From NCBI GenBank assembly GCA_964440235.1, contig CAYTQI010000003.1:1599-65598 (forward strand): a stretch of 64,000 bases of DNA, in the 5' to 3' direction. Below the pieces are notes generated by a model. That model saw only the letters and a list, made by a program, of their open reading frames with translations, was not told the origin of the DNA and made no database searches. The translations under genes were made by a program, and so were the position numbers. This DNA is from an uncultured Planctomycetia bacterium (GTDB taxonomy: Bacteria > Omnitrophota > Gorgyraeia > JABMRN01 > RBG-13-46-9). This document shows positions 13,639 to 24,532 of this stretch, one piece after another; position 1 is the first letter of the stretch; each line of letters starts with the position of its first letter.

Positions 13639-14643
13639 TTACCACACTCCCTCTACTGCCGTATTACACGCGGGACATTTTCCGTTTTTTATATTATTTT
13701 CTTCGACAGCATAACCTGCCCTGACAATAAGCTTATGGCCGCATTCATGGCATACTGTATCGATTTCTTCGGCAACGTTACCCGGATATATGTATTTGAG
13801 GCCCGCCGCCTTCCCTATTGATTCGGCTTTTCTAAGGCTCTCGAGCGGGGTTTCTTTCGTATCCGTAAATTGATAATCAGGGTGAAACCTGCTTACATGC
13901 CAGGGGATAGCCGCGTCAACGCTTTTTATAAACCCCGCGATACCTTTTAACTCCTTATCACTGTCGTTCAGCCCCGGCACTACAAGCGTCGTAATCTCAA
14001 CCCACATCCCAAGCTTCTTCATGAGCCGGATAGATTCAAGAACCGGTTTAAGAGAGGCCTCGCATATTCTTTTATACATTTTTTCATTAAAAAATTTTAG
14101 GTCCACGTTGCAGGCGTCAAGATATGGTTTTATTTTTTTAAGCGCTTTGCCTGTCATGTATCCGTTTGTCACGAAGGTATTAAAGATCCCCTCCTGCCCG
14201 GCGAGTTTAGAGGTATCATAAGCGTATTCAAAAAATACGGTCGGCTCCGTATAGGTGTAAGAAATACTTTTACATTTGTTTCTCTTCGCCTGCCTTACGA
14301 TTTCTTCGGGCGTAAGACCCACCCCGGCGGAAAAACCGTTTTTTTTCGACTGCTGCGATATCTGCCAGTTCTGGCAGAACGGGCAACGGAAATTACATCC
14401 GGCGGTCGCGACGGAAAACGCATTCGTGCCCGGAAGAAAATGGTAAAACGGTTTTTTCTCTATCGGGTCCACGTGCGCGGCGGCTGCCTCGGCATATACA
14501 CATGTATAAAGAACGCCTTTTTCGTTTTTGCGGACGCCGCAAAAACCGTATCGCGAATCGTCTATTTCGCAATTGTGGGCGCATAAGAGGCAGCGAACGC
14601 GATTATTTTCGAGTTTTTCGTAAAGTAATGCCTCTTTTTTCAT
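13639..14643 (-). CDS. AmmeMemoRadiSam-system radical SAM enzyme (PflA-like activase family)
   Basis: CNFRCPFCQNWQIS radical SAM Cx3Cx2C motif plus an upstream Cys cluster CLLCAHNCEI...FCGVR characteristic of the family. ATG at 14643 (MKKEALLYEKLENNRVRC) follows the upstream stop at 14646; the longer ORF to 14742 overlaps nth. Confidence 0.7.
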   Translation of the reverse strand: MKKEALLYEKLENNRVRCLLCAHNCEIDDSRYGFCGVRKNEKGVLYTCVYAEAAAAHVDPIEKKPFYHFLPGTNAFSVATAGCNFRCPFCQNWQISQQSKKNGFSAGVGLTPEEIVRQAKRNKCKSISYTYTEPTVFFEYAYDTSKLAGQEGIFNTFVTNGYMTGKALKKIKPYLDACNVDLKFFNEKMYKRICEASLKPVLESIRLMKKLGMWVEITTLVVPGLNDSDKELKGIAGFIKSVDAAIPWHVSRFHPDYQFTDTKETPLESLRKAESIGKAAGLKYIYPGNVAEEIDTVCHECGHKLIVRAGYAVEENNIKNGKCPACNTAVEGVW

Positions 14644-14645
14644 AA

Positions 14646-15308
14646 CTACCGTCCGGCCCGGTCCGGCCGGACGAATCGGCCCGCTGAAGGGCATAGACGC
14701 CTTATGGCGCATTCCGCGCAGAGGGCCTTTCGCGCGCCGCAAATCTTACGTCCATGACTGACAAGAAGATAATTAAAATCAAGCCAGTCGCCGCGCGGGA
14801 CTATTTTCATAAGATCTTTTTCGATCCTGACAGGGTCTTTCTCGGCACTCAAACCGATTCTTTGTGAAAGCCGCTTGAGGTGGGTATCAACCGCTATGCC
14901 CTCGGCTTTCCCGAAAGAACCGGAAAGCACGATATTGGCAGTTTTCCGCGCCACCCCCGGAAGGCTCGTAAGGGCACTCATTGTATCGGGAACCCTGCCG
15001 GCGAATTCCTTCACTATCTTTTTTGACGCGGCTATGATATTCCTCGCCTTGCTTTTGTAGAAACCGGCAGAGTGTATCTCTTTTTCCAGAATACTTTGTT
15101 TTAAACGGGAAAAGCTGCCCGGATCTTTGTATTTTTTGAAAAGCCCCGGCGTTATTTCATTGACGCGCTTATCGGTGCATTGCGCCGAAAGCATTGTAGA
15201 TACGAGAAGTTCGAAAGGCGACCTGTGGCGTAACGATGTTTTCGCATCAGGGTATTCTCTGCGGAGTATTTTTATAATACGTTTAATCCGTTTTTTCGCT
15301 GATTTCAT
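14646..15308 (-). CDS. nth: endonuclease III (DNA glycosylase/AP lyase, HhH-GPD with 4Fe-4S cluster)
   Basis: HhH-GPD motif LPGVARKTANIVL, catalytic Lys/Asp region, C-terminal CxxxxxxCxxCxxxxxC Fe-S cluster loop. Confidence 0.85.
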   Translation of the reverse strand: MKSAKKRIKRIIKILRREYPDAKTSLRHRSPFELLVSTMLSAQCTDKRVNEITPGLFKKYKDPGSFSRLKQSILEKEIHSAGFYKSKARNIIAASKKIVKEFAGRVPDTMSALTSLPGVARKTANIVLSGSFGKAEGIAVDTHLKRLSQRIGLSAEKDPVRIEKDLMKIVPRGDWLDFNYLLVSHGRKICGARKALCAECAIRRLCPSAGRFVRPDRAGR

Positions 15309-15341
15309 ACTATCCGGCCCCGCGGATCATGCAGGACTAAT

Positions 15342-15908
15342 TTACCTTTTAAACTTTCCCATGAGCTCGGCTTCCGCGATGACCCGTCCCTTTATAGCGT
15401 CCAAAAGAGCTTTTTTGGTAAGCCCGGGTTTCAAATTTAATTTCGTCCCGAGCGCGTAAAGTTTAAAAAAATACCTGTGCGCCGCGCCCGGCGGCGGATA
15501 TGGCCCTCCGTAACCTGTGCTCCCGAAACTGGTCATGCCCTGCATGGAACCGTCCGGTAAAAGGCCGTCTTTTTTTATTTTTTCCGGGAGGCCTTTTTTA
15601 TCCGCGGGAATATTATATAAAACCCAGTGAACCCACGTCCCCATGGGCGCGTCAGGATCGTCTGATATAAGCGCGAAGCTTTTTGTATCCGCCGGCGCCG
15701 AGCTCCATTCAAGCGGCGGTGAAATGTCCTCGCCTTCACCGGTATATTTATCCGGTATAAATTCCCCGTTTTTGAAAACCGGGCTCGTTAATTCAAGCGC
15801 CATAACACCACCCCCTGCCGTTACGGTAAAAATCAAAATATAAAATCCGAGTAAAAAACGAAATCCCGCGCCGCCGGGTATAAGCGGCGGGATAAACTTC
15901 AAAGTCAT
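15342..15908 (-). CDS. YbhB/YbcL family Raf-kinase-inhibitor-like protein (PEBP), probably periplasmic
   Basis: PEBP signature DPDAP...HWVLYNI...GPYPPPG..HRYFFKLYAL; N-terminal hydrophobic signal-like segment. Confidence 0.8.
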   Translation of the reverse strand: MTLKFIPPLIPGGAGFRFLLGFYILIFTVTAGGGVMALELTSPVFKNGEFIPDKYTGEGEDISPPLEWSSAPADTKSFALISDDPDAPMGTWVHWVLYNIPADKKGLPEKIKKDGLLPDGSMQGMTSFGSTGYGGPYPPPGAAHRYFFKLYALGTKLNLKPGLTKKALLDAIKGRVIAEAELMGKFKR

Positions 15909-15909
15909 A

Positions 15910-16917
15910 TCAAGGCCACCGGTGCTGATCGCCCTTTACATTACATTCAACATCGGTAATAGCGTCCCCTTTGAATATCATGGTATAATCCTTGCCTTTC
16001 CCGCTGCCCGAAGGGCAGCTATGCCACTTCTCGTTTCTAAGATACTTTCTTTCCGAAAGGGCATCCAGGCGTTCCTCATCGCTCATATCCGCCAGGGAAT
16101 CTGTTTCATTTAAAATATACCCCACCGCTGCGGCAAAAATCGCCTTCTGGTTGGCAAGGCACAACTCATTTTGCGTGCTTGAACGGGCTTTCATGTAATT
16201 CGGTATGGCTATCATCATCAAAAGTCCGACAATGGCGGTTATAACCAGTATTTCAAAAACAGTAAACCCCGACGCGGTATAAATTATATCCTTACCGAGC
16301 CGCCTTATGTTTTTTACACGCAACCCGAAGGCGTTTTTTATGCTCTTGATACCCATATCCCCTACGCTTTCCACCCCCTTGCCCATGATCTTTGGCGATA
16401 TAACAGCTATAACCTTATCGGCGAGGCGGGCCTTCAGAAAGGAAGCGATAACACGCGAACCGCCCTCCACAAGTATTTTTCTCATTCCTCTCTTATAAAG
16501 TATACGGATAATCGCGTTCAAGTCAATATGGCCGTTTTTCGCGGCCGGTAAAACAATAATTTCAATTCCGGCGTTTTCAAAGTACTTTATTTTACCGACC
16601 GGGGCCGCAGGTGTCGTGATAATCATTGTTTTCGCGAGATCGGTTTTTTTCACGACGCGCGCGCTCTCCGGCACGCGAAGCCTGCTGTCAATAATAACCC
16701 TGGCTGGATTTTTCCCCTTAGCAAGGCGGACGGTAAGAGACGGGTCGTCGTTCAGGACAGTTTCTATCCCCACGATAACGGCATCGTTTTTCGCGCGTAA
16801 GGCATGGGCGAATTTCCGTGAGCGCGGGGCGCTTATCCACTTTGACGAGCCGTCGGGAGCGGCTATTTTTCCGTCAAGCGTCTGAGCGAATTTTACCGTT
16901 ATGTAAGGCCTTTTCAT
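15910..16917 (-). CDS. chimeric ORF: RibD C-terminal-type reductase domain (aa 1-217) continuing in-frame into a type IV pilin/pseudopilin-like N-terminal methylation motif plus about 100 aa pilin-like C-region
   Basis: The N-terminal half looks like RibD_C/DHFR-like (VKFAQTLDGKIAAPDG...VEGGSRV). At aa 218 the classical prepilin signature GFTVFEILVITAIVGLLMMIAIPNY begins, with no in-frame ATG/GTG/TTG between the domains. ATG at 16915-16917 confirmed. Confidence 0.55.
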   Translation of the reverse strand: MKRPYITVKFAQTLDGKIAAPDGSSKWISAPRSRKFAHALRAKNDAVIVGIETVLNDDPSLTVRLAKGKNPARVIIDSRLRVPESARVVKKTDLAKTMIITTPAAPVGKIKYFENAGIEIIVLPAAKNGHIDLNAIIRILYKRGMRKILVEGGSRVIASFLKARLADKVIAVISPKIMGKGVESVGDMGIKSIKNAFGLRVKNIRRLGKDIIYTASGFTVFEILVITAIVGLLMMIAIPNYMKARSSTQNELCLANQKAIFAAAVGYILNETDSLADMSDEERLDALSERKYLRNEKWHSCPSGSGKGKDYTMIFKGDAITDVECNVKGDQHRWP

Positions 16918-17189
16918 TATTGAAAGCTATAGTGTTTTCTCACCGGATTCCTTATGTCCCATACACAGCTCAGGCCTTTCGGGAACGTAACAAAATCACC
17001 CGGGCCGAAGTTTACGTTTTTTCCGTCTTTCGTTTCGACGCTAACTTTTCCCTCCAGGATGTAACACATTTCCGTATCATCATAATGCCATTCAAAACGT
17101 GATATTTCTTTTTCCCATACCGGCCACGAAAAAACTCCCATTTCCTTAAGTTTTTTTTCGGATAATTTTTCAACCCTTATCTGTTCCAT
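16917..17189 (-). CDS. small cupin-fold protein (cupin_3/DUF861-like)
   Basis: 90 aa with the cupin beta-barrel motif (EWHYDDTEMCYILEGKVSV...GPGDFVTFPKG). Confidence 0.6.
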   Translation of the reverse strand: MEQIRVEKLSEKKLKEMGVFSWPVWEKEISRFEWHYDDTEMCYILEGKVSVETKDGKNVNFGPGDFVTFPKGLSCVWDIRNPVRKHYSFQ

Positions 17190-17192
17190 TTT

Positions 17193-18383
17193 TCACCTCG
17201 GGCCCAGCAGGACCCAGTAGTCGGTTTTTTTCTTAACTTTAAAAAGATAGAGCCGGCGGTTCAGGTTCGGCTGCCTCCCTAAAATACGGATATAAAAATC
17301 GTCAAAATAGTCCGGGGATTCAAGGTAATAGCCGTGGCGGGCGCTCGCGTTATTTACCGGGGTTACGTCAACCAGGGAAATCTTATCCGGCTGAAGCGAT
17401 TTGAGATACATCAAATTTTTCATCTCCTCGAACTGCTTGTGGCTTTTCACGCTTTCAGAGGGCTTTATTACCTGACGGCCCAGTTTCCTCTCGCCGTCTA
17501 TGATTCCGCTTAAAAGAAGCGCCTCGTCATCCGAAGAAACATACGCTGTCAGGAATCTGGTAAGAGAGGCTATTTCGTCTTTGAAGTCGCTGTCAAATTC
17601 ACCTTCTGCGACATCAGGCGCGGAAAGTATTACATGGTCTATTTCGAAATCCGAATCGGCGAAATCGGAACTTTTGCACATGCTCCCGAAGGCCGAGCAC
17701 ACGACCTGGGCGCCAAGGCTGGACGAGGCGAGCCAGAGTTTTTGCGGCCTCACCTCCCGCACGATCTTTCCCATAAGGTTGCACAGGTATGGGCCGGATT
17801 TCTCGGCCAGTTTCCTCGCTTTTCCGTAACCCTCCAGGGATACCGGCTGGTTGCCCGGCCAGTCAAAAAGAAGAACCGGCGTATTGACATCAAGCAGATA
17901 GGCGAAATAGGCCGCTTTTATCGCCGTAACCTCAAAATCATCCTTGTAACCGAAGGTAAGCACGAGCAGGGAATTATGCGGTGAATTTTTAACCGCCTCC
18001 TGCAGCTCTGAAATAAAATCATCTGTTTTCATTTTCTCAAGATCATCCATTTTTATCATGCCCCTTCGCTTAAGGGCGGCGGGACGCATTCTTCCTATCT
18101 TGAGGCCCGGATCCACCTTGATATCCATTTTCCCGTATGATATGTCCTCACCGATTTTCGGCAGGAAACATGACGAAAAATTCTTTCCCTCCCCGATATC
18201 CCGGCATGTCGCGTAGAAAATATTTATTACCCTGTAGCGGCCGTCAAGTTTATAGGGAATGCGCCTGTACAGGTCTTTTACATAAGGCGCGGCCGTTTGT
18301 ATGGGGAAATAGGAACAGCCCTGTAAGAATACGCCCAGGAACGTGATCAGCAGGGTTGAAAATAAAAACCGATTTTTTTTCAT
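17193..18383 (-). CDS. lipoprotein with alpha/beta-hydrolase fold domain of the DUF900 family (putative esterase)
   Basis: Signal peptide plus lipobox (FLQGCS); central region with the nucleophile-elbow-like LASSSLGAQVV typical of PF05990. Confidence 0.6.
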   Translation of the reverse strand: MKKNRFLFSTLLITFLGVFLQGCSYFPIQTAAPYVKDLYRRIPYKLDGRYRVINIFYATCRDIGEGKNFSSCFLPKIGEDISYGKMDIKVDPGLKIGRMRPAALKRRGMIKMDDLEKMKTDDFISELQEAVKNSPHNSLLVLTFGYKDDFEVTAIKAAYFAYLLDVNTPVLLFDWPGNQPVSLEGYGKARKLAEKSGPYLCNLMGKIVREVRPQKLWLASSSLGAQVVCSAFGSMCKSSDFADSDFEIDHVILSAPDVAEGEFDSDFKDEIASLTRFLTAYVSSDDEALLLSGIIDGERKLGRQVIKPSESVKSHKQFEEMKNLMYLKSLQPDKISLVDVTPVNNASARHGYYLESPDYFDDFYIRILGRQPNLNRRLYLFKVKKKTDYWVLLGPR

Positions 18384-18522
18384 ACTACCCCCTTTTATCC
18401 GCGGTTTTGATCATGCCTCTTTTCAATTATACCTTTAGAGATGAAAAGCCTCAAGTTTTATTTACGCGTAAAAATTATCCGCAACGTCAGGAAAGGCCTA
18501 AAACCGCCCTTCGGCTTTAACT

Positions 18523-19509
18523 TTACCATCCAAAAACCGCCCCGGCGTAAACGGCGGCCTCCTTCCTTGATTTAAGCCCCTTCACGTAAGCCTGGCCATT
18601 TCCTTTCATTATTCCGCGGGAAAGTTTTACATTAGCGCTTAAATCCCTGCCGCTTTCGCTTCTGAGCCGGAATAATACCGTATCCCCGGACGTTAGTTTC
18701 ATGTCCGCGCTGAAAACGATTGCGTGAATTTTTCCGTTTTTATATTTTATTTCAAACGCAAGCTCTTTGCCCCGCCTGACTTTCCAGCTGCCGAAAAGGG
18801 TGACTGTCCGACCAACCGGCGGGGCCTTTCGCGAAAGGCCTATGCCTATTTTGTATTTTATGTAATTTTTTCGGAAAATGCGAGCGCTTGTTTTAAAAGA
18901 AAATTTTGATTTCGTATTTCCGTCAAAAACATATGAAATTCCGGCATCGTCCGTAATGTTCCAGTGCCCTTTAAAAACCAGCGTGTGTATTTTTTTCGAT
19001 TTTCGGATAAGATGGGCTTTTTCATAGCGGTATATGACCTGATGATGCCTGTTTACTTCCCATATGCCGTCAAGGATAAGGATGTCATGCCTTCCGTGTT
19101 CTTTTTTTACCCTGAAGGTAAGGCGGTTATGGCGGTCGGCGCGCCAGGAACCTTTGAGTTTCAGGCAATAAGTCGAGCGGGTGGATTTTTTTGTCTGAGT
19201 GGAAACGGCAAAAAAAAGCGTGTCTTTATCTACGCGTACTATGTCACCTGTAAGCGTCAGTTTGTCGCCGGAGGCCCGCCTTCCCCGTTTGTCAAGCGTC
19301 AATGTTAGACGGCGGCGGCCTGAAAGCGACCACTTTCCCCTTAATTTTACCTGATGCGGGATTTTCGCTCCGCGCGGAAAGGGATCGTTTACGCTGTAGA
19401 TCAGCGTGTTATTTTTGCCTGTTTTGAATTTGCCGCTCAGAACCCTTCTGAAGTTGTGAAGGCGAACCAGTCTGTTATGCGGGTCGATCTCATACTTTGA
19501 CTTATGCAT
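18523..19509 (-). CDS. hypothetical very basic protein with four internal beta-rich repeats, no signal peptide
   Basis: 328 aa, K/R-rich. The repeat module h-x-h-x-G-x-W...L-x-F occurs four times (VKLRGKWSL / LKLKGSWRA / LVFKGHWNI / VTLFGSWKV). No recognisable family. Confidence 0.5.
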   Translation of the reverse strand: MHKSKYEIDPHNRLVRLHNFRRVLSGKFKTGKNNTLIYSVNDPFPRGAKIPHQVKLRGKWSLSGRRRLTLTLDKRGRRASGDKLTLTGDIVRVDKDTLFFAVSTQTKKSTRSTYCLKLKGSWRADRHNRLTFRVKKEHGRHDILILDGIWEVNRHHQVIYRYEKAHLIRKSKKIHTLVFKGHWNITDDAGISYVFDGNTKSKFSFKTSARIFRKNYIKYKIGIGLSRKAPPVGRTVTLFGSWKVRRGKELAFEIKYKNGKIHAIVFSADMKLTSGDTVLFRLRSESGRDLSANVKLSRGIMKGNGQAYVKGLKSRKEAAVYAGAVFGW

Positions 19510-19523
19510 CTATCCCCGCGGAA

Positions 19524-20285
19524 TTATTTTATTTCCAGGTCGTTTTTATAGGTTCTCTGTTTGGCCAGCTCCCAGGAATATTCGTAAAGGTGGAGCCCCT
19601 TGGAGCAGGCCACGATCTCCCCGTTTTCCACCCCTATTTCGTCCGCCATATATTGTTTCACGAGTTCAAGCCCGCCGAGATTTGACGGAAATCCTCCCCA
19701 AAGGTCCCATGAGCGAAAATACAGAAAAAAGTGCAGTTTTCCATATCGCACACGTGTGTCTATTATACGCAGGCACGGCGGGTCCTCGAGCATTATGTCT
19801 GAGGGCATGCCTATTTCCATGACCGCCTGGTTTGTCCCGAACCCCTGTGCCTTGTAGATTTTTATGACTTCCTCAACCTGGTTGCATTGAAGGGGCATTT
19901 CTTTAATCATTTTTTTCCCGTTAATTTTTGTTTCGATTTTCGCCTTCGGGTCCACCAGCCTCTCTCCATAGGTATAATCCTCGGTACTGGTCTTCTGGCT
20001 CGTGAGAAGGTAGGACAGGTACTGTTGTATATAATTCATGTCGGTAGGGGCGGGTATCGCGGAACCTTCCGGCATGAGCGGGATTATCTGATGGGACGGA
20101 TTTTTGACCCGTACGGTAATGAAATCAAATTCAAGCCGCTTTTGTCCCGCGTAACTTCCTCGGTCGATCCTGTAAACAAAACCGTGCTGCAGTATTTCCG
20201 ACAGGCACCTGAACCAGGCGTCATCAAGGTCAATCGCCTCTATATAAACCGGATTCAGGGCTTTTTCGCTTTTACTTTTTTTCAT
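19524..20285 (-). CDS. divergent thymidylate synthase (ThyA-fold) family protein, possibly archaeal/methanogen-type thymidylate synthase or a pyrimidine hydroxymethylase
   Basis: 253 aa. The ThyA catalytic core is conserved in position: PPCLRIIDTRVRYGKLHFFLYFRSWDLWGGFPSNL matches the canonical PCH...QFYV..GKLSCQLYQRSxDxxLGxPFNI (nucleophile Cys, RSxD). The rest is strongly divergent from bacterial ThyA. ATG at 20283-20285 confirmed. Confidence 0.6.
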   Translation of the reverse strand: MKKSKSEKALNPVYIEAIDLDDAWFRCLSEILQHGFVYRIDRGSYAGQKRLEFDFITVRVKNPSHQIIPLMPEGSAIPAPTDMNYIQQYLSYLLTSQKTSTEDYTYGERLVDPKAKIETKINGKKMIKEMPLQCNQVEEVIKIYKAQGFGTNQAVMEIGMPSDIMLEDPPCLRIIDTRVRYGKLHFFLYFRSWDLWGGFPSNLGGLELVKQYMADEIGVENGEIVACSKGLHLYEYSWELAKQRTYKNDLEIK

Positions 20286-20313
20286 TTATATTCGTCACCC
20301 TTTTTTCCGCGCC

Positions 20314-20679
20314 TCATGCAAAGTAAATAATCAATAAGCCGAAAATAATAGGAATAAAGCTCGCCAGGCGCAGCGTTTTAAGCGGCTTGCCCCGCCATTT
20401 TTTAACCATATTTTTACATTTTTCGATACCGAGAATAAAAATAACGATGCCCCCGGTTAATGGAAAAATACCCAGCGCCACTATAACCCATATCACCCTG
20501 CACTGTGAGGCGGCCATGAGCAGTATAAGGCCGACAATGATCCTCGCAGCGCCTATTCCATAGATTCTCTTGCGCTTCAGGGCGTAAGAAAAAACACCTT
20601 TCATTGTTTCCGGATTCATGAGAAAGATAAGCCCCGCGCCCACAGAAATAACACCTATAAGCCTGGTCAGTAAAAACAT
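20314..20679 (-). CDS. membrane protein, four predicted TM helices, unknown function
   Basis: 121 aa hydrophobic ORF. Sits in an operon between the Maf gene and the ThyA-like gene. Confidence 0.5.
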   Translation of the reverse strand: MFLLTRLIGVISVGAGLIFLMNPETMKGVFSYALKRKRIYGIGAARIIVGLILLMAASQCRVIWVIVALGIFPLTGGIVIFILGIEKCKNMVKKWRGKPLKTLRLASFIPIIFGLLIIYFA

Positions 20680-20682
20680 GCT

Positions 20683-21339
20683 TCACTCCTCCTTTCGCGG
20701 CCCCGGCAACTTATTAACAGTATACCTGCGGAAAGAATAATTTGCAAGCGGAACGATTATTTCGCAGAGATCCGCGCCTAATTTTCCGAAAAGGCCGTAA
20801 AGCTTCGTAAGCGGCAGGCCCAATATATTATAGAACGAACCCTCTATGTTATCGAATATAAACGCGCCGGGGCCTTCTATGGAAAAACCGCCCGCTTTAT
20901 CGTGAGAAAGCGCAATTTTTACGAATTTATCTATTTTTTTACGTGAAAGTTTTTTAACATGAATTTTGGATACGTCTACCGCGCTTACTGATTTTTTTTT
21001 GGCGGCGTCTATCACGCATATTCCGGTATAAACAAGAATCGTTTTCGCCGAAAATGCTTTAAGAAAGCGCCTTGTCTCTTTTTTTGTTTTGGGTTTTCCG
21101 ATAAGGCGCCTGCCCATTAAGACGACGGTGTCGGCGCCGATTACAAAACCCTCCTTTCGCCCTTTCGCTATTTTCCCGGCCTTGGCGCGGGCATTATAGA
21201 GAACGCTGAACCCGGCGCCTCTTTTATGGTCCATTTTTTCCGGCACGCGGCTTATAGCGACTCTATGGGGTATGCCGCACTCCTTAAGTATTTTTGAGCG
21301 CCGTTTCGAAGCGGACGCCAGTATTATTTTAACCTTCAT
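20683..21339 (-). CDS. maf: Maf-like nucleoside triphosphate pyrophosphatase
   Basis: From the ATG at 21339: MKVKIILASASKRRSKILKECGIP...GKP, the Maf family N-terminal signature; conserved acidic/Lys catalytic residues are present. Confidence 0.8.
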   Translation of the reverse strand: MKVKIILASASKRRSKILKECGIPHRVAISRVPEKMDHKRGAGFSVLYNARAKAGKIAKGRKEGFVIGADTVVLMGRRLIGKPKTKKETRRFLKAFSAKTILVYTGICVIDAAKKKSVSAVDVSKIHVKKLSRKKIDKFVKIALSHDKAGGFSIEGPGAFIFDNIEGSFYNILGLPLTKLYGLFGKLGADLCEIIVPLANYSFRRYTVNKLPGPRKEE

Positions 21340-22571
21340 ACGTTGTCTCCGCAAACCCACCCCGTGGAAAATGCGGCCTGCATATTATAACCGCCGGTGG
21401 CGGCATCCACGTCAATCACCTCGCCGGCGAAAAAAAGGCCTTTCACAATCCTTGACTCCATGGTCATTGGATTTATTTCCCTTGTGCTGACGCCCCCCCT
21501 TGTAATAATACCGTTTTTGACCGGCATTACGCCGGAGGCGGTTATTCTAAAGTCAAATAATCCGTTTATAAGTTTTTTTCTTTCCGCTAACGTAACCCCG
21601 CACGCGGGTTTTTTGCCGTCAACACCGCAATATATAAAAAACTTTTCCGTTATACGCCCGGGAAGAAGATTTTTAAATACATTTTTTACGCTTTTTCGCG
21701 GGGACGCCTTAAATTCACGTAAAATCCTCGCGTTCAGTTTTTTATAGTCCAGGGCGGGTTTAAAATTGATAGAGATCGCCGCGCCGGGTTTTTCTTTCAA
21801 CTCGTCATACACGGACGCGCTCATGTCAAGTATAACCGGGCCCGACAAGCCAAAGTGAGTGAACAGCATTTCGCCGAATCTTTCTCCTATTTTTTTGCCG
21901 CCGGAAAAAAGCGAAATCCTAACGTTTTTAAGCGATACGCCCGCCCACTCTTTTGTAAATTTTTCCCTGGTGAGGACGCCGGAGAGCGCCGGTCTCAACG
22001 GAATAATTTTGTGTTTCAGTTTTTCGGCAAGCGCATACCCGTCTCCCGTGGAACCCGTCCCGGGATAGGAAAGCCCTCCCGTGGCAATAACCGCGCTTGT
22101 TGACGGAAAATATTTTCCCGAATACGTTAGAACACCTTCTATTTTTTTGTTTTTCGCGATGATTTCGCGCGCGCGCGTCCCGCGCCGGATTTCAACATTC
22201 ATCTTTTTAAGTTTTAATTTCAGGGCGCCGAGAATATCCCCTGCCGCGCCGCTCGCCGGAAATACGCGGCCGCCCCGCTCTGTTTTGAGCCTGACCCCGG
22301 CGGTTTCGAAAAAAGATATGAGCTCGATGTTGAAAAACTTCGCGAAAGCGTTCCTTAAAAATTTACCAGAAGGCGAAAATTTCCCTATAAAGTCCCCGAT
22401 ATCGCGGGAATTCGTAAGGTTGCACCGGCCTTTTCCGGAAATTAAAAGTTTTCTGCCAAGACAATCATTACGTTCAAAAAGAAGAATTTTCTTTTTTCTT
22501 TCCGCGGCGCGTATAGCGGCCATCATTCCGGCCGGGCCCGCTCCGATTATGATCGTGTCAGATTTTCTCAT
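21336..22571 (-). CDS. HI0933/BaiN-family FAD-dependent flavoprotein (NAD(P)/FAD oxidoreductase)
   Basis: From the ATG at 22571: MRKSDTIIIGAGPAGMMAAIRAAE Rossmann GxGxxG, HI0933-like central and C-terminal motifs (GKGRCNLTN, GEVIDVDAATGGYNMQ). The 64-codon N-terminal extension in the ORF track overlaps the divergent promoter and is probably not translated. Confidence 0.8.
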   Translation of the reverse strand: MRKSDTIIIGAGPAGMMAAIRAAERKKKILLFERNDCLGRKLLISGKGRCNLTNSRDIGDFIGKFSPSGKFLRNAFAKFFNIELISFFETAGVRLKTERGGRVFPASGAAGDILGALKLKLKKMNVEIRRGTRAREIIAKNKKIEGVLTYSGKYFPSTSAVIATGGLSYPGTGSTGDGYALAEKLKHKIIPLRPALSGVLTREKFTKEWAGVSLKNVRISLFSGGKKIGERFGEMLFTHFGLSGPVILDMSASVYDELKEKPGAAISINFKPALDYKKLNARILREFKASPRKSVKNVFKNLLPGRITEKFFIYCGVDGKKPACGVTLAERKKLINGLFDFRITASGVMPVKNGIITRGGVSTREINPMTMESRIVKGLFFAGEVIDVDAATGGYNMQAAFSTGWVCGDNV

Positions 22572-22716
22572 GGAGAAACATATAATACCAGAAACCCTCT
22601 TTTCTATCAACGAAATTAATAGTATAATAACCCGAGCGGGCGGAGGGGCGTGGTTTCGGACAAGGGTTGAGGGCCGCTTCCTGTAATAGCGCGCCTCTTC
22701 CGCGGTAACCCATACA

Positions 22717-23727
22717 TTGATGATGATATACGCGATAAAACCAAAAATATACCTCGCTCCCATGTCGGGAATAACGGACCTCTCGTTCCGGCTTGTTAGC
22801 CGCTCTTTCGGCGCCGCTCATTGTTTTTTTGAAATGCTTGACGCGAGAGCCCTGATCTATGAGCACCCGAAAAACAGGCGCCTGTTAAAAACCATTAAAA
22901 AAGATTCACCTCTGTCCGCGCAGCTTCTCGGGCGGGATCCTTCCGTGATGCTTGATGCCGCCGAAAAGCTGCTGAGTTTCGCCGACATATCCTTTCTGGA
23001 TATAAACAGCGCCTGCCCGGCGAAAAAAGTACTAAAAAAAGGCGCCGGCGCCGCTCTTTTGCGGAATCCGCCGGAACTGGGTAAAATCATTAAAAAATTG
23101 GCTTCCGGGCTCCGGGTACCGGTCACGGTTAAAATACGAAGCGGTTTTCACAAAAGAGATGCGGCCGAATGTATCAGGACCGCAAAATTGTGCCGGGACA
23201 ACGGCGCCTCGTGTATTTTTATACACGGCAGGACAATGTCGCAGGGGTACAGCGGCGATATCGATTATGAGATAATAAAAAAAGTGAAGGGCGCGCTGAA
23301 AATACCTGTCTTCGGAAGCGGTAATATATTCACTCCTTTCATGGCCAAAAAAATGCTGGATGAAACCGGCTGCGACGGGATACTGGTGGCGAGGGGGGCG
23401 CTCGGTAATCCATGGATATTCGGGAATATTGAAAAATACCTGAAAAGCGGGGCCGCCCCCGAAATTCCGGGCCTGGCCGTGAGGAAAAAGGTCCTTAAAA
23501 CACACCTCGCCTGCGTAGAAAAATATAAAGACATAGCGGCATCCAACAAGACGGGCTTTATGGGCAAGATAGCGATGTGGTATCTTAAAGGCATTCCGGA
23601 AGCCGCGAAAATCCGCAACCTCATCTCGAAAGCCGGCTCTTATCGTGATTTAATACGCCTTATCAATCGTATTCCGGCTAAAGCGGGCGGGCCTTCTAAA
23701 GCGTTTCCGCGAACCAATCGAGAATAA
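22717..23727 (+). CDS. dus: tRNA-dihydrouridine synthase (DusB-like, TIM barrel)
   Basis: LAPMSGITDLSFR, catalytic Cys in INSACPAKKV, and the FMN-binding KIRSG...HGRT motifs. One of only three plus-strand genes. Confidence 0.85.
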   Translation: MMMIYAIKPKIYLAPMSGITDLSFRLVSRSFGAAHCFFEMLDARALIYEHPKNRRLLKTIKKDSPLSAQLLGRDPSVMLDAAEKLLSFADISFLDINSACPAKKVLKKGAGAALLRNPPELGKIIKKLASGLRVPVTVKIRSGFHKRDAAECIRTAKLCRDNGASCIFIHGRTMSQGYSGDIDYEIIKKVKGALKIPVFGSGNIFTPFMAKKMLDETGCDGILVARGALGNPWIFGNIEKYLKSGAAPEIPGLAVRKKVLKTHLACVEKYKDIAASNKTGFMGKIAMWYLKGIPEAAKIRNLISKAGSYRDLIRLINRIPAKAGGPSKAFPRTNRE

Positions 23728-24532
23728 GTTTCTCGATCCTATCCGGATTGAACTGAATTATTCTTTCGGCGTGAAGCCCCCCTTTTACTATTTCTATCTT
23801 TTTGCGGACCCGTGCCGCCTCATAGAGCTTTCTGGAATGGCTGTCTTTGACAAGCCAATCCCTGTCGCCGTGTATGAAAAGTATCGGGGTGTCTTTTATA
23901 AGGCCTATCATGTCTATCGGCTTTTTTTTCGGCTCGAATATACTGCCGCACCTCGCGCCCTTGCCTTCCCACCCGCACTCTATATTATCTTTTAAATCCG
24001 AAAACATCCCGGGTTCCCAAAAATGAAAATTTACCATTTTAAAGCTTGACGGCGCGCTTATAAGCACCATACTGCCGACATCGCCCCTCTCCGAGGCGAC
24101 GTTAATGGCGGAAGCGGCCCCGAGAGAAAAAGCGACCAATCCCACGCCATCATACCCCTCGGCCCTGGCGTAATCGATAACGACATTCAGGTCATGGTGC
24201 TCTCTGGCTGACCAGGTAAACTTTCCGCCGCTTTCGCCGTGGCCCCTCGGATCGAAAATTATAACGTCATACCCGGAAGATATAAAATCCGCCGTTTTAC
24301 GCATCCACCTGTTTTTCTTGCTGTTGTAAAAACCCGGGCATATTATTACCACTTTTTTAAATCCGTTTTTGTACCGCTCGTACGCTATCGAAACGCCGTC
24401 TTCTGTCATAAGCGCGCCCTTCAGGCATTCCGCGAGCGGCCGCGAATTAACGGCTCCGGCGCAAAAACAAACTATCGCGTAAAAAAACAGGATAAAATAT
24501 AGATACTTCCTCACGTACGCTCTTTTATCCAT
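23696..24532 (-). CDS. alpha/beta hydrolase with N-terminal membrane anchor/signal
   Basis: Nucleophile-elbow region VAFSLGAASA, acid/His region LFIHGDRD...GGLH; N-terminal hydrophobic segment. Confidence 0.7.
   Translation of the reverse strand: MDKRAYVRKYLYFILFFYAIVCFCAGAVNSRPLAECLKGALMTEDGVSIAYERYKNGFKKVVIICPGFYNSKKNRWMRKTADFISSGYDVIIFDPRGHGESGGKFTWSAREHHDLNVVIDYARAEGYDGVGLVAFSLGAASAINVASERGDVGSMVLISAPSSFKMVNFHFWEPGMFSDLKDNIECGWEGKGARCGSIFEPKKKPIDMIGLIKDTPILFIHGDRDWLVKDSHSRKLYEAARVRKKIEIVKGGLHAERIIQFNPDRIEKLILDWFAETL

Follow-up and report, generated by a model that had tools for sequence, protein, structure and literature searches.

A probable housekeeping thymidylate synthase of a divergent ThyA clade in Omnitrophota and the basic repeat protein encoded beside it

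We consider it likely that the ThyA-fold enzyme described here is the housekeeping dTMP synthase of Omnitrophota, belonging to a divergent clade of ThyA, and that the basic protein encoded beside it is an unrelated orphan neighbour. For the enzyme the most likely explanation is an ordinary function, within a clade of which no member has been characterised, while hydroxymethylation or another non-classical chemistry is left with a small chance.

The enzyme gene was analysed within a 64-kb window, by which we mean the whole stretch of DNA under study; protein searches and a genome scan place this window in Omnitrophota. It is the third of four genes on the minus strand, in the order Maf, membrane protein, enzyme, basic protein (Table 1). 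Both open reading frames on which the original prediction was built (253 and 328 aa) are present on the same strand, and the membrane protein and Maf that it had placed upstream were found there as well, Maf with a clear family match. The gaps amount to 3 nt between the Maf and membrane-protein genes, 28 nt between the membrane-protein and enzyme genes, and 14 nt between the enzyme and basic-protein genes. Judged from this spacing, the four genes are probably co-transcribed, an arrangement with which such short gaps are compatible; the basic protein, the membrane protein and Maf probably share a transcript with the enzyme in the lineage of the window only. A promoter-like site lies in the 139 nt that follow the basic-protein gene and probably starts the next transcription unit, that of a DUF900 gene. 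A search of the window bore out the statement that it holds neither ThyX nor a second ThyA. With a validated ThyX query, FolA, ThyX and a second ThyA were found neither in the window nor in 88 short loci; a look through the literature for thymidylate synthase or ThyX in Omnitrophota yielded nothing of use.

Table 1. Features of the enzyme locus: coordinates in the window and correspondence of enzyme residues to E. coli ThyA
Feature	Position	Strand	Description
Promoter-like site	18426..18454	-	TTGAGG, 17 nt, TATAAT; consensus match only
Basic protein	18523..19509	-	328 aa; all-beta repeats; restricted to Omnitrophota; pI 10.9; five (L/F)xGxW motifs
ThyA-fold enzyme	19524..20285	-	253 aa; probable thymidylate synthase of divergent clade; signature N152-Q153 + D168-P-P-C171-L
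Asn202	19680..19682	-	Asn177, selects uracil over cytosine (rule: PMC13326640); Asn in 91/96; retained
RSWD motif, residues 191-194	19704..19715	-	Arg166, Ser167, Asp169; Arg 96/96, Ser 94/96, Asp 90/96
PPCLR motif, residues 169-173	19767..19781	-	Cys171 = catalytic Cys146; Cys in 95/96 representatives
Asn152-Gln153	19827..19832	-	replaces Arg126-Arg127; clade signature; Asn 92/96, Gln 81/96
Insertion, residues 111-133	19887..19955	-	modelled beta-hairpin at ThyA variable small-domain position
Membrane protein	20314..20679	-	hydrophobic, 121 aa, no family assignment; maximum Kyte-Doolittle over 19 residues = 2.65
Maf nucleotide pyrophosphatase	20683..21360	-	PF02545 E 3e-46; TIGR00172 149 bits, above cut-off
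Tyr106			Tyr94; retained
Cys171			Cys146; retained
Arg191			Arg166; retained
Ser192			Ser167; retained
Asp194			Asp169; retained
His232			His207; retained
Tyr234			Tyr209; retained
Asn152			at Arg126 position; replaced
Gln153			at Arg127 position; replaced
Asp168			at Leu143 position, just before PPCLR; replaced
Leu172			at His147 position; replaced

Family, fold and genomic context of the enzyme

Profile searches agreed with the original view of a divergent ThyA-fold enzyme and placed it closest to the methanogen type. The best family match was the methanogen-type thymidylate synthase model of NCBIfam (TIGR03283), with 99.2 bits (E 2e-28) and thus far short of its cut-off of 174.55; it was also the sole family match over the full length, aligning enzyme residues 15-239 with model positions 3-199 of 201. 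The Pfam family PF00303 was recognised with 37.3 bits against a cut-off of 24.3, in residues 130-244 of the C-terminal half only. TIGR03284, the model for classical ThyA, gave 33.5 bits against a cut-off of 108.35, classical ThyA equivalogs scored 27-35 bits, and the enzyme falls below every thymidylate-synthase cut-off of NCBIfam. Ten further clade members also scored low with TIGR03283 (52-105 bits), which sets the clade apart from both annotated types.

The AF2 model of the enzyme had a pLDDT of 96.1. The Foldseek matches were thymidylate synthases and MilA, whose TM scores, normalised to the query, were about 0.62-0.72, and the enzyme has the ThyA fold of the superfamily (PF00303). Pyrimidine hydroxymethylases and hydroxylases are among the solved structures nearest to it, in keeping with the likeness to phage-type pyrimidine enzymes that had been proposed from the sequence. 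The N-terminal 149 residues, the pterin-binding half, gave no sequence match in the PDB, and there is no solved structure for any close relative. Literature searches on MJ0757 and PDB 9iqc returned no papers.

The likeness to methanogen-type thymidylate synthases (TIGR03283) extends over a full-length alignment, as seen for ORF59 of Methanobacterium virus PhiF1, which aligned over clade-profile positions 16-217 with 88 bits. Both share an N-terminal DAW, YTYG, P-C-L at the nucleophile, R-S-x-D, Asn177 and H-x-Y; in either case the residue at the Leu143 position is acidic and the C-terminus is short. They differ in that the enzyme's clade shows Asn-Gln in place of the Arg-Arg retained by the methanogen type, carries a G43-S44 ... 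R50 motif that PhiF1 lacks, and is found not in methanogens but in bacteria and bacterial viruses. The distance to classical ThyA (PF00303, TIGR03284; E. coli, L. casei) is larger: sequence similarity can be detected in the C-terminal half alone, Arg126/Arg127, His147 and Leu143 are replaced, and the segment with the folate-binding Trp80/Trp83, like the C-terminal tail, is either absent or rebuilt.

A search for homologues of the enzyme returned 6015 proteins, of which the best 120 are 74-87% identical and mostly from Omnitrophota; all sources that name these 120 call them thymidylate synthase. At least 453 GTDB species genomes contain a relative, nearly all of them Omnitrophota among those listed. 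An exhaustive search of 50%-identity representatives yielded 1316 clusters at E<=0.001 and 166 at E<=1e-30, and the named members beyond Omnitrophota belong to Nitrospirota (Dissulfurispiraceae), Thermodesulfobacteriota and Pseudomonadota MAGs. Relatives were also present on 245 uncultured viral contigs of IMG/VR (the best 80 of the 245 being 43-57% identical), where, as read from sequence, they belong to phage replication modules that also contain genes for DNA polymerase and for DnaB-like and RecA-like proteins. Among the cultured phages of INPHARED, those of known DNA chemistry included, no close clade member was found, the matches being partial and 24-35% identical.

For the usual genomic context we sampled 80 species loci with the enzyme (73-91% identical), clustered all ORFs within 5 kb and read the gene identities from the sequences. 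The most frequent companions were gpsA (36/80), a PilZ protein gene just downstream of the enzyme (31/80), an NYN/YacP-like gene just upstream (23/80) and a dihydropteroate-synthase-like gene nearby (16/80); apparent hom, thrC, nnr, pdxJ and acpS genes were also seen around the enzyme in Omnitrophota loci. By these predicted identities the context elsewhere in the phylum is that of a housekeeping gene, which has moved in the lineage of the window. The identity of the enzyme, 73-91%, compares with about 50% for the basic protein and is far higher than would be expected of a modification gene of sporadic occurrence. One member of the clade, P0366, is a fusion with thymidine kinase, which provides dTMP by salvage, and five long members contain intein and LAGLIDADG domains; inteins typically lodge in essential genes of replication or nucleotide metabolism.

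Active site and probable reaction

Residue correspondences were taken from an HMM alignment between E. coli ThyA and the profile of the clade, and conservation was counted over 96 family representatives. The catalytic core described in the original prediction is indeed kept, with PPCLR at residue 169, GKL at 182 and RSWD at 191, and at least 90 of the 96 representatives share each of the retained active-site residues. The suggested comparison of folate- and dUMP-binding residues found Asn177, Arg166, Ser167 and Asp169 kept and Arg126/Arg127 lost. In classical ThyA these two arginines come from the partner subunit and bind the phosphate of dUMP. PhiF1 keeps T-R-R in this region and SPO1 gp29 keeps T-R-Q, so the Asn-Gln pair is a signature of the enzyme's clade.

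In the N-terminal half, which cannot be aligned to ThyA, Gly43, Ser44, Arg50, Tyr89 and Tyr104 are near-invariant in the clade. Glu58 and the Trp80/Trp83 region of classical ThyA are not alignable to the enzyme, whose C-terminus lies about 35 residues earlier. The insertion of residues 111-133 comprises two strands in the model (114-121 and 124-131); it corresponds to more than 50% gaps in the family alignment and is missing in most members outside Omnitrophota.

We propose that Cys171 would add to C6 of dUMP, whose uracil ring would be read by Asn202, whose phosphate would be held by Arg191 and Ser192, and whose deoxyribose 3'-OH would be held by His232 and Tyr234. A pterin one-carbon donor would be bound by Asp194 and the Tyr104/Tyr106 region, and its methylene group would be transferred and then reduced, so that the predicted product is dTMP. 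In the place of the partner-subunit arginines of classical ThyA the enzyme has Asn152 and Gln153, and the clade-invariant Arg50 together with the Gly43-Ser44 loop probably takes over phosphate binding.

Asp169 of ThyA binds the pterin ring, and position 143 of classical ThyA is occupied by a bulky hydrophobic residue that excludes water. Following Lee et al. (PMC13326640), Asn at 177 goes with a uracil substrate and Asp with a cytosine substrate, the exchange of Asp169 for Asn marks flavin-dependent 5-hydroxy-dCMP synthases, and position 143 is hydrophobic with a methyl product and acidic with a hydroxymethyl product. The first two rules suggest a dUMP-using, pterin-dependent enzyme. At 177 it has Asn, not the Asp of T4 dCMP hydroxymethylase and MilA, which speaks against a cytosine enzyme; at 169 it has Asp, not the Asn of the flavin 5-hydroxy-dCMP synthases (including PDB 9iqc), which speaks against that type as well.

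It is possible, though unlikely, that the enzyme is a thymidylate synthase of non-classical mechanism, using another one-carbon carrier or reductant or a single-subunit active site. Such a mechanism would fit a pterin-binding N-terminal half with no detectable similarity to any solved ThyA, the loss of the inter-subunit arginines together with an invariant Arg50, and the proximity to the methanogen type, whose own cofactor is not settled (PMC9012536; PMC9931769). It would also fit that no DHFR was seen near the enzyme gene in the window and the 88 short loci; among the common neighbour clusters of the viral relatives there was none, a result that carries no weight either way. However, the pterin-ring-binding Asp169 is conserved, the dihydropteroate-synthase-like gene is linked to the enzyme in the loci counted above, and the cofactor cannot be read from sequence. 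For the clade as a whole, found in Omnitrophota, Nitrospirota, Thermodesulfobacteriota and many uncultured phages, we hold a departure from classical folate dependence to be similarly doubtful; its members may then form 5-hydroxymethyl-dUMP or some other product modified at C5, or arrive at dTMP through a different one-carbon carrier or reductant, with the partner subunit unneeded.

We regard as less likely still a role as dUMP hydroxymethylase, or in some other modification of pyrimidines at C5, by which the enzyme would supply a modified DNA nucleotide instead of dTMP. The position-143 rule would point to hydroxymethylation, as Asp168 stands at this position, acidic in hydroxymethylases (PMC13326640), and SPO1 gp29, a known dUMP hydroxymethylase, reads KDRPCN where the enzyme has KDPPC. 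The combination of Asn177 and an acidic 143 in gp29-type enzymes is thus found in ours, but the same pair occurs in the PhiF1 ORF59 thymidylate synthase of the methanogen type (KEIPCL). As this thymidylate synthase is also acidic (Glu), the rule fails to separate the two kinds of enzyme in this branch, provided that the methanogen type is truly a thymidylate synthase; that assignment rests on genome context and partial biochemistry, according to references cited in PMC9931769. Across the 96 representatives, Asp occupies the position in 66, and the others have mainly His, Ser or Asn. The close relatives on viral contigs, some of which adjoin genes resembling enzymes of the 7-deazaguanine pathway, would also suit a modifying enzyme. 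Yet, unlike the phage hydroxymethylases, the enzyme is cellular, phylum-wide and highly conserved, and it is found in a housekeeping context (in the window and the 80 loci) rather than in a phage hypermodification cluster. No glycosyltransferase, kinase or other hypermodification gene lies nearby in the window, and the fusion of one clade member to thymidine kinase also argues against this reading.

The basic repeat protein as a neighbour

The 328-aa protein had been described as K/R-rich, without a signal peptide and with four repeats. The first two points stand, with 73 Lys and Arg residues in 328, a pI of 10.86 and no hydrophobic N-terminus; the number of repeats does not, as there are five (L/F)xGxW motifs, at residues 56, 118, 146, 179 and 238. 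HHalign of alignment segments detected internal repeats at 50-89% probability. Values of pI between 10.0 and 10.9 were also obtained for other proteins encoded nearby (Maf, the membrane protein, HI0933-like and Dus), and among homologues of the basic protein the pI varies between 5.5 and 11.2, so that its basicity is less remarkable than first claimed. We found 299 homologues, about 50% identical and with no Pfam domain; those named by organism are nearly all from Omnitrophota. For the protein itself Pfam gave sub-threshold lipocalin-like and nuclease-like matches only, NCBIfam, PADLOC and PHROGs gave no match, and a PDB profile search and a scan of viral contigs were empty. A role in nucleic-acid binding, which had been thought plausible, finds no support, as the protein matches no nucleic-acid-binding fold or family and its basic charge is not conserved.

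Conservation of the pair was checked in the 80 enzyme loci, and 78 of them lack the basic protein next to the enzyme. The two that have it (L009 and L010) are the closest relatives, with the enzyme 91% and 88% identical and the basic protein 69% and 56% identical, respectively; both contain extra DNA between the membrane-protein gene and the enzyme. Besides the window, Maf adjoins the enzyme in one locus (L009). In seven further genomes with the basic protein, no ThyA-like gene was present within 4-8 kb (7/7). There its neighbours were a GH3-family gene and HTH_17 in the first, TPR and peptidase C1 in the second, a MazG-like pyrophosphatase and Tex in the third (L008), peptidase C1 and DUF2130 in the fourth, a response regulator and HTH_17 in the fifth, an SduA_C-domain (Shedu-like) gene and peptidase C1 in the sixth, and fatty-acid synthesis genes in the seventh. 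As a recurring neighbour of the basic protein we noted a papain-family peptidase (peptidase C1) only, in three genomes.

A single module for modifying nucleotides or DNA bases, made up of the enzyme, the basic protein, the membrane protein and Maf as the original prediction suggested, is very improbable: the shared strand of the genes and their gaps of 3-28 nt, and the MazG-like pyrophosphatase beside the basic protein in one other genome, would favour it, but the adjacency is confined to the closest species (two of 80 for the basic protein, one for Maf), and elsewhere the basic protein, whose charge varies and which shows no nucleic-acid-binding fold, adjoins unrelated genes, among them restriction genes. 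Of the outcomes named in advance as speaking against that prediction, an unconserved neighbour is what we observed; clear orthology of the enzyme to bacterial ThyA does not hold, as it is no orthologue of the classical type. The basic protein is most likely a neighbour particular to this lineage and no functional partner of the enzyme, and it, the membrane protein and Maf are probably not functionally tied to the enzyme.

Implications

For the window, our results mean that the enzyme is what public annotation already calls it, a thymidylate synthase, and that the proposed modification module fails. Thymidylate synthase is a model enzyme, a drug target and a recurring source of phage DNA-modification enzymes. 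The clade represents a large bacterial and viral branch of ThyA, with no solved structure and no biochemistry, in which the sites for the dUMP phosphate and the cofactor have been rebuilt. It bears on how far residue-based rules for predicting the product can be trusted, notably the rule for position 143.

Gene neighborhood of the ThyA-like gene in Omnitrophota

Many of the loci L011–L088, drawn from other Omnitrophota, have parts of one common arrangement around the ThyA-like gene. A NYN/YacP-like gene lies upstream in 23 of them and a dihydropteroate-synthase-like gene, carrying an additional N-terminal domain of ~130 aa, in 16; downstream, PilZ is found in 31 loci and gpsA in 36, followed by hom and thrC. 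This arrangement is lost from the lineage of the window.

In the window, a 335-aa ORF combines a riboflavin-pathway reductase domain (residues 2–215; TIGR00227, 202 bits) with an in-frame type IV pilin/pseudopilin N-terminal segment (residues 216–290; GFTVFEILVITAIVGLL). This ORF represents either a genuine fusion or a pilin gene whose start is unrecognized. It was matched over its full length in the loci of the two closest relatives (L009 and L010). For L011, L012, and L015 the match was confined to the reductase part, and the matching gene lies 3–5 kb away from the ThyA-like gene.

Charge and neighbors of the basic repeat protein

Strongly basic proteins are numerous across positions 14000–24000 of the window, with pI values of 10.5 for Maf, 10.2 for the HI0933-like protein, 10.0 for Dus, 10.9 for the membrane protein, and 9.9 for the RibD-like protein. 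In this genome, high pI by itself is thus weak evidence that a protein binds nucleic acid. A papain-family peptidase (Peptidase_C1) directly adjoins the basic repeat protein in three further genomes of Omnitrophota (L007, L171, and L173), and is the sole recurring neighbor observed for this orphan protein. Type I restriction genes or a gene with an SduA_C domain (Shedu-like) occur nearby in these loci.

Coordinates of the reductase-pilin ORF and of the peptidase pairings
Feature	Locus	Position	Strand	Models
335-aa ORF, riboflavin-pathway reductase + pilin segment	window	15910-16917	-	TIGR00227; ComGC, PilA, GspG
Basic repeat protein + Peptidase_C1	L007	9127-9915		
Basic repeat protein + Peptidase_C1	L171	3209-3991		
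Basic repeat protein + Peptidase_C1	L173	5188-5970		

Fusions, inteins and viral members of the ThyA clade

In one clade member (P0366, 422 aa) the ThyA-like domain is fused to thymidine kinase (PF00265, E 3e-39), and several others (P0383, P0250, P0245, P0292, and P0380) are broken by inteins bearing LAGLIDADG homing endonuclease domains. Members 43–57% identical are carried by IMG/VR contigs from uncultured viruses (L089–L168), as long as 277 kb, where the genes are placed within replication modules. Two kinds of neighbor, each in ~20 loci and identified by eye only, are a radical-SAM protein resembling QueE and a protein of 468 aa whose family is unknown; they hint at 7-deazaguanine DNA modification.
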